From Octopus vulgaris (Eukaryota), in the NCBI GenBank assembly GCA_951406725.2, contig OX597825.1:23436001-23500000 (forward strand): DNA of 64,000 nucleotides, written 5' to 3'. A program made the position numbers and the translations under genes. Of the stretch, positions 1 to 59,066 are shown piece after piece; position 1 is the stretch's first letter; every line of letters starts with the position of its first letter. The notes under the pieces are model-generated. The model was given only the letters and a program-made list of their open reading frames with translations, ran no database searches and had not been told where the DNA came from.

Positions 1-385
1 ATGCGCAGGAGTGGCTGTGTGGTAAGTAGCTTGCTAACCAACCACATGGTTCCGGGTTCAGTCCCACTGCGTGGCATCTTGGGCAAGTGCCTTCTGCTAT
101 AGCCTCGGGCCGACCAATGCCTTGTGAGTGGATTTGGTAGACGGAAACTGAAAGAAGCCTGTCGCATATATGTATATATTTATGTTTGTGTGTCTGTGTT
201 TGTCCCCCTAGCATTGCTTGACAACCGATGCTGGTGTGTTTACGTCCCCGTCACTTAGCGGTTCGGCAAAAAGAGACCGATAGAATAAGTACTGGGCTTA
301 CAAAAGAATAAGTCCCGGGGTCGATTTGCTCGACTAAAGGCGGTGCTCCAGCATGGCTGCAGTCAAATGACTGAAACAAGTACAT
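1..385 (+). mobile_element. tRNA-derived SINE, family A (Octopus-type, CORE-like middle, internal (TA)n/(TG)n)
   Basis: Head GGAGTGGCTGTGTGGTAAG...GGTTCAGTCCC (A/B-box-like), then CCTTGGGCAAG-like core. About 15 related copies in this window. Confidence 0.9.
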
Positions 386-4934: not shown

Positions 4935-5227
4935 TTGTTTTTTGTTTGTTCCTTCTCGAGCCATGCCTGGCTCATAAAGGCCGGTTTCTCGGTTTCCTTG
5001 GCGTATAGGTTCTCCACCTGGACGAGACGTCGGTCCATCGCAGGTGAGCTGCAAGATGCAGGAAGAAAGAGTGAGAGAAAGTTGTGGCAAAAGAGTCAGC
5101 AGAAGTTCGCCATTACCTTCTGCCTGATACACTTTCAGCTTAGGTGTTTTGCCCGGTCTGAGATTCGAACCTGCGATCCCTCGACTGCGAGTCCGCTGCT
5201 CTAACCACTAGGCCATGTGCTTCCACC
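4935..5227 (-). mobile_element. tRNA-derived SINE, family C
   Basis: Reverse strand begins GGCCTAGTGGTTAGAGCAGCGGACTCGCAGTCGAGGGATCGCAGGTTCGAATC (tRNA-like A and B boxes). Confidence 0.85.
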
Positions 5228-8080: not shown

Positions 8081-9309
8081 TACATAGGAGATATTTCTCT
8101 GCTGTCTATGCATCGTATATGATACAAATTCCCATATTTTCTTCCAATATATTGGAGTAACTTGGGACTTACAAAAGGACAGCTTTATGTTTCTCAGAGC
8201 AAATGAAACAAGGGTTAATAAAAAAAAATCTGAAAGCAGGCATGGGTGTTTAAGACAAACTTACAAAAATGCTTTGGGCTGGTAAAGATTTAAATGAAAT
8301 TAGAAATATCAAATTTTTCAGTGGCAAAAGATTGTTATGAGATACACAAAAACTTAAATGACAAAAGAAAATGAAGACGTTATCAAATGATAAAAGCCTG
8401 ATTAAATACAGAATAAAATAGTTTATAACAATGATAATAGCTAGATTAAATATTGAGCAAAAATCGTTTAGACAGATGTGATAGGTATTGCATTAAAGGA
8501 ACTGTTTTGTTAATATTCTGGTTAAACTTATTTAAAAACATGTATGGTAATATTATGATATATATGATAATAGTATTAAAATTGCTTTACTGTTGATGTT
8601 GAAAATCCATAATCAGATCTATCAGAGCAGACACAGTGCTTTGAGATAGGCACAAGTTTTACTGGCTATTACTCAATTCATTATAACTTAGTTGCTTATC
8701 GTTTGTTTAAGCCTAGAAGCATAAGCTGGCTGAGATTGCTAGAACTGTGCTCCAAGCAGATATATATTTGTTAATCACCTCCTATAATGTGTTACTTCAC
8801 AGCAGAACTGCTATCTTCTCTGTGATAGAGTTGTTGCTTCCAAGTTTCGGATTTAGAAAACAACATCATCAAACCGTTGTATCCTCCGTCTCCAAATGTC
8901 GTGGTGCTGCCATGGATATTGTGATGGATGCATTGTGATGTCACTGGTGCCAAGCTGTATTGGCCCCTTTGCCTTTCCCTTGGATAACATCAGTGGTGTG
9001 GAGGGGAGAAGCTGGTATGCATGGGCATCTGCTGGTCTTTCATAAACAACATTGCCCAGACTTGTGCCTCAGTGGGGAACTCTCTAGGTGCAATCGCATG
9101 GTCATTCATGACTGAAGTAGGTCTTTACCTTTTTTTTACAATTTTGGTTGATCTCAGTTAAACATTTGATTGCCGAGAGTGCACAGTGATCTAACAAGTT
9201 GCTGGTGCTATAGTTTTATGTATATGTGATAATATGTAAGTAATGGATCTGAAGTACTTGGCAACTGGATTGGTGTGTAAGTAATTGGATATTCTACAGG
9301 TTTTTGTTC

Positions 9310-10699: not shown

Positions 10700-11803
10700 A
10701 TGTATGTAACTTAACTTTTAAAAATTTCCTTCGTCTTTTGAAACATCTGCCGCCACAGCTCCTGCTCATCGAGCAATTTAAATTTATGATTTATAATTTA
10801 TTCTATAGAAATTATATGTAGTAGTGTATGTGTGTAATTTTGAATAAATTACAGAATATAATTTTATAGCTCTATTCAGGTCTGATGTAACAAAAACATA
10901 TTTTATATGCAAGTGTTCCTTGAAATATTTTTTTTTTCTATTTAACCTCAGTTTTGTATTATCAGAATCAAATAACATGCATTGTTTTTGAAAACGTGTT
11001 TACTCTTTGTTTTCTCTTCATCATATTTTTGTTATTCTTCAGAAAATAAATTACTGACTACACAGGAAGTGAAAGGTTTTATTTGCAGCATGTATCCTTA
11101 CGTTTATTTATTTATTTTTGGAAATACAGTGAAAGAAAGAAAAAAAGAAAGAAAGAAAGGAAAAAAGAGGTGAAATATTTCCTGTTGCATTAGCAAAGAG
11201 TGTCTTTGAAATAACAAACAAATATATTCAGGCTATTCACTGTGGAATATTTTTCCCCGAAAACTTTCAATTAGTCGTAAAATCATGAATATGGTACATC
11301 CACATTTGGTCATGTTTTGTGGAAAATTCTCAGTGAAGTGTGGTGCTGAAGTCTCTTACCAAAATAAGAATGTTTTCTTTACAATATTATGTATGTGTGT
11401 GTATGTGTGTATAGATGGATAGATAGATAAATAAATAGACAGATAGATAGATACATACATAAATAGATAGATAGATAGATAGATAGATAGGTAGGTAGTC
11501 AGACAGACAGAGATAGATAGATAGAGAGATAATGGTATCATTTTAACGACAATTGTTTGCTAATGATTTGATAATTACTTCCATTTATTTTATCCCTTTG
11601 CTTTTTTTTAATGATCTAAGTTGAAACACAAAAATTTTAATTAGCATAATGCAATTAGCAACAATTTATGTGTGTGTGCATGCATATGTGTGCATATATA
11701 TATATATATATGTGAAAATCTTAGTAATCCAATCAAGTTGTAAAACTGAAGAAATAAATGAAGTTGAAAATGCACACAATATATGAAGATTTATTTCAAT
11801 TTT

Positions 11804-12003
11804 GGAGATGTACCTGCATAGCAAGTGATTTGATCTGAGATCGTGTGCTGAAACGAAAACAATTGCAGCATGGAAGGTGTTTGTAAGTCATTTAAGAAAC
11901 ACACAAAAGCTGTTCGATTCACTTCAACATTTAAGTTTAATTTGTCAAAATATTTTCTTCGCTTTAAGACCGCGACCTGTTCACTGACAAAAATCCATGC
12001 TGC
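11804..12003 (-). mobile_element. ~200-bp retroelement (Penelope pLTR/retrozyme-like) carrying a G3-C8 variant hammerhead fold
   Basis: Flanked by the 11-bp direct repeat ATTTCAATTTT (11793-11803 and 12004-12014). A second copy lies at 58910-59066. Confidence 0.75.
11941..11991 (-). ncRNA. Minimal type-I hammerhead fold with GUGAACA core (C3G/G8C)
   Basis: Minus strand: tttgtca-GTGAACA-g-gtcgc(ggtcttaaa)gcgaa-GAAA-atatt-t-tgacaaa. 7-bp stem I, 4/5-bp stem II, palindromic helix III AATATT. Confidence 0.65.
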
Positions 12004-12089
12004 ATTTCAATTTTATTATATATATGCTCATATATAGTGTGTGTGTGTGAGAGAGAGAGAGAGTGTATGTACGTGTGTGTGTGTGTACA

Positions 12090-21095: not shown

Positions 21096-21510
21096 AGGTG
21101 CAGGAGTAGCTGTGTGGTAAGTAGCTTGCTTACTAACCACATGGTTCCGGGTTTGTTCCCACTGCATAGCACCTTGGGCAAGTTTCTTCTACTATAGCCT
21201 CTGGCCAACCAAAGCATTGTGAGTGGATTTGGTAGACAGAAATTGAAAGAAGCCCATTGTATATATATATATATATATAGATATACGTATATGTATGTAT
21301 ATATATGTATGTGTGTATATATGTTTGTCTCTCCGCCATTGCCTGTCAACCAATTCTGGTTTGTTTACATCCCCATAGTGGTTCGGCAAAAGAGGCCGAT
21401 AGAATAAGTACTAGGCTTACAAAGAATAAGTCCTCGGATCAGTTTGCTAGACCAAAAGCAGTGCTCCAGCATGGCTGCAGTCAAATGACTGAAACAAATA
21501 AAAGAATACA
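21096..21510 (+). mobile_element. SINE family A
   Basis: Family A head, core and tail. Confidence 0.9.
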
Positions 21511-21680: not shown

Positions 21681-22043
21681 AGGCACAGGAGTGGCTGTGT
21701 GGTAAGTAGCTTGCTAACCAACCACATGGTTCCGGGTTTGGTTCCACTGCATGGCACCTTGGGCAAGTGTCTTCTGCTATAGCCCCGGGCCGACCAATGC
21801 CTTGTGAGTGGATTTGGTAGACGGAAACTGAAAGAAGCCTGTCGTATATATGTATATATATGTATGTGTGTGTGTTTGTTTGTGTGTCTGTGTTTACGTC
21901 CCTGTCACTTAGCGGTTCAGCAAAAAGAGACCGATAGAATAAGTACTGGGCTTACAAAAAGAATAAGTCCCGGGGTCGAGTTGCTCGACTGAAGGCGGTG
22001 CTCCAGCATGGCCGCAGTCAAATGACTGAAGCAAGTAAAAGAG
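21681..22043 (+). mobile_element. SINE family A
   Basis: Family A head, core and tail. Confidence 0.9.
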
Positions 22044-32566: not shown

Positions 32567-33923
32567 GCTTACAGCAGTACTTTTCAAACTTTTTGCTGGA
32601 GTGGAACCCCAAGGAAACATTCCACTGGCTCGAGGAACTCCTGTGCAATAATTTAATAGTCTTATGCACACATATCTGCACAGGAGAATTAAAAATTACT
32701 GCCGATTTTAGCAGTTTTGTAACTTCTTGCCGAACCGCTGGACTGTACTGGCAGAACCCTGGTTGAAAACCACTGGCTTACAGTACTTTCCAAACATTTT
32801 GCTGAAACATTCCACTGGCTCGAGGAACTCCTGTGCAATAATTTAATTGTCTTATGCACACATATCTGCACAGGAGAATTAAAAATTACTGCCGATTTTA
32901 GCAGTTTTGTAACTTCTTGCCGAACCGCTGGACTGTACTGGCAGAACCCTGGTTGAAAACCACTGGCTTACAGTACTTTCCAAACTTTTTGCTGAAACAT
33001 TCCACTGGCTCGAGGAACTCCTGTGCAATAATTTAATTGTCTTATGCACACATATCTGCACAGGAGAATTAAAAATTACTGCCGATTTTAGCAGTTTTGT
33101 AACTTCTTGCCGAACCGCTGGACTGTACTGGCAGAACCCTGGTTGAAAACCACTGGCTTACAGTACTTTCCAAACTTTTTGCTGAAACATTCCACTGGCT
33201 CGAGGAACTCCTGTGCAATAATTTAATTGTCTTATGCACACATATCTGCACAGGAGAATTAAAAATTACTGCCGATTTTAGCAGTTTTGTAACTTCTTGC
33301 CGAACCGCTGGACTGTACTGGCAGAACCCTGGTTGAAAACCACTGGCTTACAGTACTTTCCAAACTTTTTGCTGAAACATTCCACTGGCTCGAGGAACTC
33401 CTGTGCAATAATTTAATTGTCTTATGCACACATATCTGCACAGGAGAATTAAAAATTACTGCCGATTTTAGCAGTTTTGTAACTTCTTGCCGAACCGCTG
33501 GACTGTACTGGCAGAACCCTGGTTGAAAACCACTGGCTTACAGTACTTTCCAAACTTTTTGCTGAAACATTCCACTGGCTCGAGGAACTCCTGTGCAATA
33601 ATTTAATTGTCTTATGCACACATATCTGCACAGGAGAATTAAAAATTACTGCCGATTTTAGCAGTTTTGTAACTTCTTGCCGAACCGCTGGACTGTACTG
33701 GCAGAACCCTGGTTGAAAACCACTGGCTTACAGTACTTTCCAAACTTTTTGCTGAAACATTCCACTGGCTCGAGGAACTCCTGTGCAATAATTTAATTGT
33801 CTTATGCACACATATCTGCACAGGAGAATTAAAAATTACTGCCGATTTTAGCAGTTTTGTAACTTCTTGCCGAACCGCTGGACTGTACTGGCAGAACCCT
33901 GGTTGAAAACCACTGGCTTACAG
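32567..33923. repeat. 7-copy tandem array (190-bp period) of a hAT-type MITE
   Basis: Imperfect TIRs CAGTACTTTTCAAAC and GGTTGAAAACCACTG, with the 8-bp direct repeat GCTTACAG at 32567-32574 and 33916-33923. Units start at 32575, 32781, 32971, 33161, 33351, 33541 and 33731. Confidence 0.95.
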
Positions 33924-34843
33924 TCTCAGATAGAATGCAATTAGAAATAACCCCAACCATTCATTTGATCTGTTATCTACTTTTAATTTCAATCTTATAA
34001 CTATTTTATTGTGTTCTACTCTTCATTTTTTTAAACATTATTTCATTTCTAGAGAGTTTGTTTTATTATTTTCTTTCCCCCCTTTATGAATTTGGTTTTT
34101 AACATTTTCCACTGACTAGTTAAAAAACACACTACCCCGTAACAAAATCAAAAAATTTTTCTATTTTTACATATGAAAATTTTGTTTCTAATATATTCTT
34201 ATTACATTATCGAAATTTCTTTTTGAACTGCAGGGCAAATATTCTATGCACTCCATAGACCAGAATCCTTGATATTATCCTTTTTTCTTTTTTGTGAATA
34301 TCATAAAGGACAAGTAAAATAAAATTGATTTGCACTGAAGCTTATTGGTTTTATACACCATAAATTCAATTTAAACGTTACATTGTACCTGATATAGTTA
34401 GTAACTTATACTAATAAACTAGCATTGGAAATTCTAAGTGATTTATTGTCATTTCTGATAGAGTACATACATTTATGATTAGGTTTGGTTAATAGTTACA
34501 AATAGCATATTCATGTACATCTAATGAAGAGCGTGGAGGAGGTGGGCATTGCTGGGTTGCCGAATTGATTTTCGTTTTCATTGCTTTTAGGCAAACCAGT
34601 AGAGTTTAATAAAGAAGAATTTTATTACTTGAAATCTGTATTAAAAGCACCTAAGTAGAGTGGTGCTCAGTCATCGTGAAAATATTTAATTTTTATCAAT
34701 ACACACGCATCATGCAGACACACATATTTACATCATATACGCAAGCAGAAACTTGTCCCCCCCCACACTCTTTCTTTCTTTCTTTCTGTATGTATATATA
34801 TTGATATAGATATACACATACATACATATATATATATATATAT

Positions 34844-42230: not shown

Positions 42231-42631
42231 AGGCGCAGGAGTGGCTGTGTGGTAAGTAGCTTGCTAACCAACCACATGGTTCCGGGTTCAGTCCCACTGC
42301 GTGGCATCTTGGGCAAGTGTCTTCTGCTATAGCCCCGGGCCGACCAATGCCTTGTGAATGGATTTGGTAGATGGAAACTGAAAGAAGCCTGTCGTATATA
42401 TGTATATATATATATGTGTGTGTGTGTCTGTGTTTGTCCCCCTAGCATTGCTTGACAACCGATGCTGGTATGCTTACGTCCCCATCACTTAGCGGTTCAG
42501 CAAAAGAGACCAATAGAATAAGTACTGGGCTTACAAAGAATAAGTCCCGGGGTCGATTTGCTCGACTAAAGGCGGTGCTCCAGCATGGCCGCAGTCAAAT
42601 GACTGAAACAAGTAAAAGAGTAAAAGAGAGA

Positions 42632-47628: not shown

Positions 47629-48656
47629 CATACATACATACATACATACATACATACATACATACATACATACATACATACACACATATATATATATATT
47701 TATGTTCTAGTCATTTCTACAATTGTTTTAGTATGTGCTTAACAGTAAGAAACCAATACTGAAGTATGTTACTTATCTGTCATCCTTACTATCATTTGTG
47801 TTCCATTGTTGCATAAGGATGTAATATGCTGTACTAAGTTTGGCTGGCACGAACAGAAAAAGTCTCTTTCTCCCTCACTCTAAACAAACTTAATCACGTC
47901 CCCACTATACTGTTACTGGCACCATCAACTCTATGTCTAGTTTATCTCAGCCTTCCTCTTTATGTTGCTATCAATAACACAACATTATTCTTACCAATTC
48001 CTCAACTTTGACTATCTCATTTATATTTCACTAACCTGATAAACAAATTTTATTGCCCGACTTGCTAACAGCATGATTGCAGTGATTATGTTCCGTGGTT
48101 AATCATCATTATCATTTAATTGTCATCATCATCATCAGCAGTGGCAGTGGTGCGGTTGTTGTCGGTGGGGCTCGCAGTGGCGTTATTGGCATTGTTGGTG
48201 GTGGCGGTGTCAGCATAGTCACAGTGGCATCATCATTATCATCGTCATCATCATCATCATCATCATCGTTTCATAGTCATCATTGCAGCAGCTCTTCTAC
48301 CATCCTCTTTTGAGTTGGCCTGAGCTATCCCATAGTACCTTGCTAATCATCTTAGTCTTTTCACGACCCAGCATTTTCAGATCAGACTTCACTATTTCTT
48401 CCTGCCTTTCACCTTCTTCCATTATGACCACCCTTCACCAGCAGTTCTTGCCATTTCTATCGCAACATTCGTTGTCATTGTACATCACATATTTGCACCA
48501 ATGCAGTGATTCTAGTCTGTTGCACATATTATCTGGTATCTTTAAAGGCCCAGTCATTCTCTGTCATGGTCTTGGCTAACATCTAACATTACACACCTCA
48601 AAACTTCATACATTCCTTGTTAATTTTTTTTCTCTAGATTCCATAGAATTTCCACT

Positions 48657-48977
48657 TTCGTGTTGGGCCTCTTTCAAGTGTTGGGCCTCTTTCGAGTGTT
48701 GGGCTTCTTTCGAGTGTTGGTCCTCTTTTGAGTGTTGGTCCTCTTTCGAGTGTTGGTCCTCTTTCAAGTGTTGGTCCTCTTTCGAGTGTTGGACCTCTTT
48801 CGAGTGTTGGTCCTCTTTCGAGTGTTGGACCTCTTTTGAGTGTTGGGCCTCTTTTGAGTATTGGGCCTCTTTTGAGTATTGGGCCTCTTTCAAGTATTAG
48901 GCCTCTTTCAAGTGTTGGGCTTCTTTTAAGTGTTGGGCCTCTTTCGAGTGTTGGGCCTTTTTTGAGTGTTGGGCCTC
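48657..48977. repeat. 18-bp minisatellite (TCGAGTGTTGGGCCTCTT)n, ~17 copies
   Basis: Direct tandem repeats running into RTE-tail-related sequence. Explains the KEAQHS and SVGPLS ORFs. Confidence 0.95.
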
Positions 48978-49342
48978 ATGGAGGCAATGACCAAGACCTT
49001 TGGTATTATGTCATTCTTGAGAAGAAGGCCTATCAAGCTAAACAAAATCACAGTCATGGCAGATACAGGTATCACACAAATTGGCATGTAAACACACCCC
49101 AGTGTTATGCAAATGGCACCTGTGCCAGTGGCACATAAAAGCACCCATTACACTCAGAGTGAATGATGATGATGGTGATGATGATGATTGTCCTTGCCTT
49201 ACTACAGTCCCATTTGCAGAGAAATGTCCCTTGTTGCCATTAGAGGGAACAACTTTCTACGTTTGTGAGACTGCCACTTATCTTAGCTAATATGTGTCCA
49301 TATTAGGGAATTATTTAAATTATTTAAATTAATTAAATTCTA

Positions 49343-55026: not shown

Positions 55027-55055
55027 ATTCTTTGTAATAATATTACCATCTAATA

Positions 55056-55478
55056 GGCGCAGGAGTGGCTGTGTGGTAAGTAGCTTGCTTACCAACCACA
55101 TGGTTCCGGGTTCAGTCCCACTGCGTGGCACCTTGGGCAAGTGTCTTCTGCTATAGCCCCAGGCCGACCAAAGCCTTGTGAGTGGATTTGGTAGATGGAA
55201 ACTGAAAGAAGCCTGTCATATATATGTATATATATATATATGTGTGTGTGTGCATGTATGTTTGTGTGTCTGTGTTTGTCCCCCTAGCATTGCTTGACAA
55301 CCGATGCTGGTGTGTTTATGTCCCCGTCACTTAGCGGTTCGGCAAAAGAGACTGATAGAATAAGTACTGGGCTTACAAAGAATAAGTCCCGGGGTCGAGT
55401 TGCTCGATTAAAGGCGGTGCTCCAGCATGGCCGCAGTCAAATGACTGAATCAAGTAAAAGTGAGAGTAAAAGAGAGTA
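55056..55478 (+). mobile_element. SINE family A, young
   Basis: Full head, core and GAGTAAAA tail. Confidence 0.9.
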
Positions 55479-58909: not shown

Positions 58910-59066
58910 GGAGATGTACTTGCATAGCAAGTGACCTGATCTGAGATTGTGTGCTAAGAAACACACAAAAACCGTCAGATTCACTTCAACATTTAAATTT
59001 AATTTGTTGAAATATTTTCGTTGCTTTGAGACCGCGACCTGTTCACTGAAAAAACTCCGTGCTGCA
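58910..59066 (-). mobile_element. Second, internally deleted copy of the G3-C8 hammerhead element
   Basis: Same GGAGATGTAC...GCTGCA ends as 11804-12003. Minus strand has GTGAACA-g-gtcgc(ggtctcaaa)gcaac-GAAA-atattt. Confidence 0.8.

Follow-up and report, generated by a model that had tools for sequence, protein, structure and literature searches.

Motif and unit in the window

The minus strand of Octopus vulgaris contig OX597825.1 carries a 200-bp unit with a hammerhead-like fold, in which the core reads GUGAACA and the letters at positions 3 and 8 are exchanged relative to the CUGAnGA consensus. The locus raises two questions: whether this is a natural G3-C8 hammerhead, and to which kind of mobile element it belongs. 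Pairing between positions 3 and 8 of the hammerhead is established background, shown by engineered swaps. The window is the whole stretch of DNA that was analysed, 64,000 nucleotides in length, and its relevant features are the following.

11804..12003, minus strand: solo pLTR-end copy from a Penelope-like element (PLE), comprising a 5'UTR with hammerhead, the first ~31 codons and a tail
11941..11991, minus strand: type I minimal hammerhead motif; the A at 11958 removes the G10.1-C11.1 pair in this copy
11978..11984, minus strand: core GUGAACA, with G3 at 11984 and C8 at 11979
11991-11985 and 11947-11941, minus strand: 5' and 3' arms of stem I
11977, minus strand: extra G between core and stem II
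11976-11972 and 11962-11958, minus strand: stem II, GUCGC and GCGAA, separated by a 9-nt loop
11957-11954, minus strand: GAAA
11949..11954, minus strand: helix III, the palindrome AAUAUU; cut predicted 3' of U17 (11948), numbering after PMC4209133
11804..11891, minus strand: start of the PLE ORF, ATG at 11891; 84% identity, over residues 1-31, to the N-terminal frame found in a full-length copy
11804..11858, minus strand: tail of ~55 nt, missing from inverted and inner tandem copies
11793..11803, no strand: left copy of the target-site duplication, exact over 11 bp
12004..12014, no strand: right copy of the target-site duplication; its first letters also match the element's 5' end
58910..59066, minus strand: second copy, of another subfamily, more decayed, with a ~43-nt internal deletion; the GUGAACA core is retained

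The minimal type I layout, the GUGAACA core in both copies and the exact 11-bp duplication thus stand as the earlier note on this DNA had described them. In the window copy, position 11.1 is A, while C is found there in 46 of 55 sampled copies; with the G10.1-C11.1 pair lost, this copy folds no better than its shuffles (z -1.42), compared with z -3.29 and -2.31 for intact copies. The stems of the second copy are broken (z +0.31). A perfect 11-bp inverted repeat around the motif, which the note had taken for a feature of the unit, occurs in 3 of 84 copies, a form with two mismatches being present in 63 of 84; it was therefore dropped as a family trait and is a decay product specific to this copy. 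An open frame of 68 codons across the unit differs from the ORF frame and was discarded as a chance occurrence.

The G3-C8 core does not match the literal CUGAnGA consensus, so searches built on it miss the motif, as had been anticipated. The Rfam covariance models give no hammerhead match in the window at the gathering score and none in five loci at E<=1, among them a canonical C3-G8 relative.

Copy number and conservation of the G3-C8 core

In the 2.8-Gb genome, an 18-mer spanning the core has 3,640 exact matches, the tail motif 5,094, and a motif skeleton left free at positions 3, 7, 8 and 9.1 has 6,154, with zero matches in the control of each search (reversed for the 18-mer and the skeleton). 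Thousands of matches against none in the controls show that the motif family is not a product of chance. G3 is absent from at most 253 of the 6,154 skeleton matches (<=4%), a count made with a loop range one base wider than that of the 6,154 search, and is thus present in at least 96%. The complete G3-C8 combination is found in 158 of 166 distinct motifs, from loci that lie outside the searches selecting on position 3, and in 43 of 48 motifs of the tail-anchored sample. The exchange is accordingly a trait of the family, here termed family A, rather than decay of single copies, in agreement with the earlier note.

Some family A copies carry G8 (5 of the first 100 skeleton matches listed). Four such loci (L116, L134, L247, L257) combine G3 with G8, leaving the core unpaired, and G8 is more frequent than T8 among the first 100 matches listed; these copies may represent a minor sub-lineage or a hotspot. 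In family A, 25 of 574 core cells differ from the majority letter of their column, compared with 588 of 8,784 elsewhere; this count lacks a correction for CpG and for subfamily sites and was left out as evidence. Contigs from sequencing runs under three further organism labels contain the core as well.

The host element

The 200-bp unit is the junction between the terminal-repeat (pLTR) end and the ORF of a protein-coding PLE in the same genome. The element was reached through upstream sequence that 3 of the first 30 copies have in common; this sequence pointed to an endonuclease-like frame, and truncated and then full-length copies were found from there. In the full-length copies (L412, L413), the unit lies directly before the RT-endonuclease ORF and again ~1-1.5 kb after it, flanking the ORF as direct pseudo-LTRs. 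A 5'-truncated copy (L097) retains an open RT-EN frame of 839 aa with the motifs DKS, YVDD, CX3CxxC and VYQI..YIGET, assigned by eye against PMC8557442. The ORF has 136 homologues, some labelled as RT-domain proteins; searched against Pfam and PDB sequences, it gave no match. The linkage to PLE RT/GIY-YIG ORFs that had been suspected is therefore found in L097, L412 and L413. From the proposal of a non-autonomous PLE/retrozyme family, the PLE link stands and the independent non-autonomous family falls, since the unit belongs to a coding PLE.

The features of an EN+ PLE occur together here: an ORF with RT and a GIY-YIG-type domain, pLTRs, a tail, and inverted 5'-truncated copies. As in the Neptune- and Nematis-type EN+ PLEs described in the covered part of PMC8557442, the RT is followed by a CX2-5CxxC linker and by a GIY-YIG-like domain at the C terminus, targets are (TA)n and partial 5' copies are inverted; unlike them, the octopus protein reads DKS in place of DKG. 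The likeness is one of motifs, the linker fitting Neptune and Nematis alike and the tree being built without named reference elements. The (TA)n flanks are frequent at insertions, and inverted 5' partial copies accompany 37 of 72 copies. The ~55-nt tail is absent from the inverted copies. The unit includes the ATG, at 11891 in the window and ~55 nt after the predicted cut site. Among 44 solo-like copies, 15 share a non-(TA)n string of at least 9 nt on both sides, against a mean of 1.9 and a maximum of 5 in shuffled flank pairings.

A group of 19 of the 90 tail-anchored copies (L142, L163 and 17 more, on contig C1) has one common inverted junction and one common 3' flank, which indicates that a larger unit holding the insertion was amplified. 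In L101 (reverse strand 8394-9215), a mariner-like transposase frame lies inside a pLTR, and in L098 (reverse strand 1604-2908) a C2H2 zinc-finger array lies near another copy, both labelled by eye.

Related families and covariation of the 3-8 pair

Four families can be compared at the core. In family B, which is older (71-79% identity), G3-C8 occurs in 19 of 27 copies and helix III is shorter but still palindromic. Its majority letters equal those of family A in 31 of 32 structural columns versus 130 of 170 others (p 0.007), although the query that found family B was chosen by the motif, a choice that may favour this agreement. Family D is a sister element (54% aa identity; SH-aLRT 100 in a quick tree) and very young, with copies 98-99% identical and ORFs of up to 1,312 aa (L381, L407-L411; P0001). 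Its hammerhead has C3-G8, a change from G-C to A-U in stem II, a change from U-A to C-G in stem I, and C at position 9. Family C carries U3-G8 in 18 of 30 copies and C3-G8 in 2, several others being unpaired; this family (L333-L362) is old, with RT/EN remnants upstream in L335.

Among 14 metagenome loci, a strict descriptor detects no motif, and a looser pattern or inspection by eye places one behind the ORF in 4. The pair is C3-G8 in L363 and L367 and U3-A8 in L364 and L365; in addition, the L364 motif has C9 and the L363 motif U15.1-A16.1. The L363 motif (4956-5020) and ORF belong to a metagenome PLE whose 1,632-aa frame contains a repeat region. By eye, a stretch of this frame looks like a putative Ulp1-type cysteine protease.

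In an alignment of nine motifs, 97% of cells are paired and 11 of 12 pairs show two-sided changes, a level reached by none of 500 shuffles and far above slid controls; the nine were hand-picked for their hammerhead look, and related sequences can outdo shuffles. Pair 3-8 is CG in four, GC in three, UA in one and UG in one, L365 (U3-A8) having been excluded as misaligned, and G5, A6, G12 and A13 are invariant. The covariation of pair 3-8 among relatives is that of a real hammerhead. Both the conservation of G3/C8 and the covariation of stems I and II, on which the earlier note had made its reading depend, are therefore observed within the limits of these samples.

Stems I and II, the G10.1-C11.1 pair, an extra base after A9, a palindromic helix III and UH at the cut site give the motif the features of a PLE minimal type I hammerhead. 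C11.1 is missing in the window copy, and position 9.1 is G in the octopus family versus H in the published consensus. The motif is genuinely of the PLE hammerhead type, with a natural G3-C8 core pair, and is likely a ribozyme. PLE pLTR hammerheads are minimal type I, with a 9/10.1 extra base and a palindromic helix III (Cervera and De la Pena 2014, PMC4209133). They resemble the octopus motif in pLTR position, short stem I, 5-bp stem II with G10.1-C11.1, the 9/10.1 extra base, palindromic 15.2-16.2, common U17 and thousands of mostly solo copies; they differ in lacking the G3-C8 pair and in an extra base that is H rather than G. The text covered from that paper reports a natural U3-A8 family in Schistosoma and describes no cephalopod G3-C8 family. 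Natural covariation at 3-8 is likewise known from Perreault et al. 2011 (PMC3088659), in which the section covered names U3-A8 only.

5' ends and formation of the short copies

The 5' ends were mapped from the first 90 tail matches on contig C1, the 19 with a common junction being counted once to give 72. At 49 of the 72, the 5' end lies at or before position -5 relative to G3. A single one falls at the predicted cut site; its letters there agree with an inverted copy, and no pile-up is seen. The copies span an uncut site, which means that cutting is not a step before insertion and that the short copies are made from uncut RNA. Among 127 distinct 5' contexts, 24 run on into the pLTR and 103 do not; AG precedes ATGCAG in 51 of these 103, and 32 of the 51 show an extra G at a position that is C or T in the template, with background beyond it. 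The enrichment of the extra G (p 1.6e-17) is overstated, the contexts being partly dependent. RTs can copy the cap, and we infer that the extra G is cap-derived and marks a start site 23 nt before G3.

On this reading, transcription would start at the A of YAGATG, 23 nt before G3, and the 5'UTR of the capped RNA would contain the hammerhead, with ~55 nt between it and the ATG. Reverse transcription would be primed by the element protein at either of two positions inside the ORF, ~33 and ~90 nt from its start, and synthesis back to the cap would give copies of ~150 and ~205 nt with the extra G. These would insert into AT-rich targets with duplications of 9-14 bp, the short unit being a retro-copy of the pLTR/ORF junction.

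This scheme has a parallel in Poseidon PAc of Anolis, the hammerhead of which depends on protein without being required for insertion, and the tail of which lies between two RT start sites inside the ORF (Frangieh et al. 2024, PMC11167929). The octopus 3' ends ~33 and ~90 nt into the ORF parallel these two sites. In the portions of that study covered here, PAc also shares the hammerhead at the pLTR/ORF junction, AT-rich targets and an uncut RNA template. Unlike the octopus element, PAc has C3-G8 in its natural form, G3-C8 having been made there only by engineering both positions, and its ORF begins inside the hammerhead, whereas in the octopus element the ATG comes ~55 nt past the cut site and the protein contains a CX3CxxC linker.

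Splicing, with a YAG acceptor and a very short first exon, could instead account for the extra G and the sharp 5' end, in line with upstream sequence resembling a branch point and acceptor and with the Drosophila virilis Penelope intron that ends at helix I (PMC4209133). We consider this unlikely: only one letter beyond the template is common, with background after it, and a GTAAGT donor occurs in 1 of 30 pLTR copies at a single candidate site. The reading of the motif as a ribozyme would be unaffected. A very improbable origin for the short units is an independent, non-autonomous retrozyme family spreading through hammerhead-cut circular RNA. Head-to-tail arrays of 9, 6 and 3 units, spaced by ~166-174 nt with one common junction, do exist (L034:6048-7635, L035:6942-7909 and L036), confirming the tandem arrays that the earlier note had envisaged, as a single junction lineage at three loci. 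Solo units far exceed ORF copies, and a 2026 preprint derives animal retrozymes from pLTRs (bioRxiv 10.64898/2026.07.22.740005). Against this origin, the unit ends fit the putative start site and two ORF-internal ends rather than the cut site, the inverted 5' partial copies in 37/72 are PLE-like, and arrays are rare. With non-LTR retrozymes the octopus element has in common that short tandem arrays exist, each unit bearing one type I hammerhead, as the parts considered of the preprint (bioRxiv 10.64898/2026.07.22.740005) and of PMC7229834 describe them; unlike those, the octopus arrays are a small minority, most copies elsewhere being non-tandem, as solo or inverted pLTR ends, and many tandem units have changes in stem II. 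The likeness to retrozymes looks limited to this small tandem sub-lineage; weakened by the 5'-end map, the retrozyme reading is true at most there.

Whether and why the hammerhead cuts

The reading that we favour, and regard as probable, is that the unit is a short PLE pLTR/ORF retro-copy with a likely working, slow hammerhead, assisted by a partner or a protein, the core of which has flipped from C3-G8 to G3-C8. Cutting would follow the completion of helix III by a second copy or by protein, and its most likely role would be to split tandem transcripts made by read-through, or to decap the message and silence it. In predicted folds, G3 pairs with U17 at p ~0.66, lengthening stem I into an inactive form; U17 in place of C17 would avoid the full G3-C17 mispair. 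The lower activity of G3-C8 with C17 than with G17 (PMC3884650) fits the avoidance of C17 in the octopus family. The engineered C3G/G8C change partly rescues a PLE hammerhead (PMC11167929). The predicted fold of a natural tandem contains no helix III cross-pairs, and a hand-built dimer fold was set aside because its spacer was left unfolded, so that its energy is not comparable. The G3-U17 pairing, the missing cross-pairs and the few copies with G8 speak against efficient cutting.

The motif could alternatively descend from a hammerhead without useful cutting, its fold serving as a site for protein binding or packaging, or the swap having been carried by a successful master copy. Consistent with this are the origin of the copies from uncut RNA, the predicted G3-U17 mispair, the core departures in sister families and in vitro insertion that is not hurt by hammerhead mutants (PMC11167929). 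It is nevertheless improbable, since a double change that preserves exactly pair 3-8 reflects a requirement of the active conformation. Three different Watson-Crick pairs at 3-8 across lineages, the invariance of G5, A6, G12 and A13 in the nine motifs and the retention of G3-C8 from family B to family A also speak against it. Returning to a cutting hammerhead, the core departures in relatives (C9 in D and L364, U15.1-A16.1 in L363, mostly U3-G8 in C) could reflect a relaxed need for fast catalysis. A broader suggestion, possible though doubtful, is that core changes (G3-C8, U3-A8, U3-G8, C9, U15.1-A16.1) are tolerated and have been fixed repeatedly in this PLE clade because the hammerhead would act as a deliberately slow 5' switch on a capped message; once armed by a second copy or by the element's protein, it would decap the RNA and silence it. 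If so, the octopus family would provide the first case in an animal of a natural G3-C8 ribozyme at high copy number, and families A and D, being sisters, would offer a naturally matched pair for testing the role of PLE hammerheads.

Significance

The architecture, a hammerhead in a PLE pLTR, is already known; what appears to be new is the natural G3-C8 core in an octopus PLE, not a new kind of system. The texts covered from the hammerhead and PLE literature contain natural U3-A8 and engineered G3-C8 but no report of a natural G3-C8 hammerhead, and an earlier description is possible. Within the parts covered, the retrozyme preprint (bioRxiv 10.64898/2026.07.22.740005) does not mention octopus, and the supplement of PMC8557442 lists octopus Naiads and not the G3-C8 motif.

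The retention of G3-C8 across thousands of copies and two amplification ages, beside a C3-G8 sister, provides natural support for the 3-8 pair. The family also shows that both CUGAnGA descriptors and Rfam give too low a count of the hammerheads in animal genomes. From the mapped 5' ends comes genomic evidence that the RNA behind PLE copies is uncut and probably capped, a point relevant to the purpose of PLE hammerheads.

Other repeats in the window

An abundant dispersed SINE-like repeat of 80-90% identity occupies window positions 1-226, 21096-21321, 21681-21906, 42231-42456 and 55055-55280, among others, and we take it to resemble octopus tRNA-derived SINEs. A tandem repeat of period 190, with ~7 copies at 99% identity, spans 32614-34053, and an 18-bp minisatellite lies at 48588-49031.
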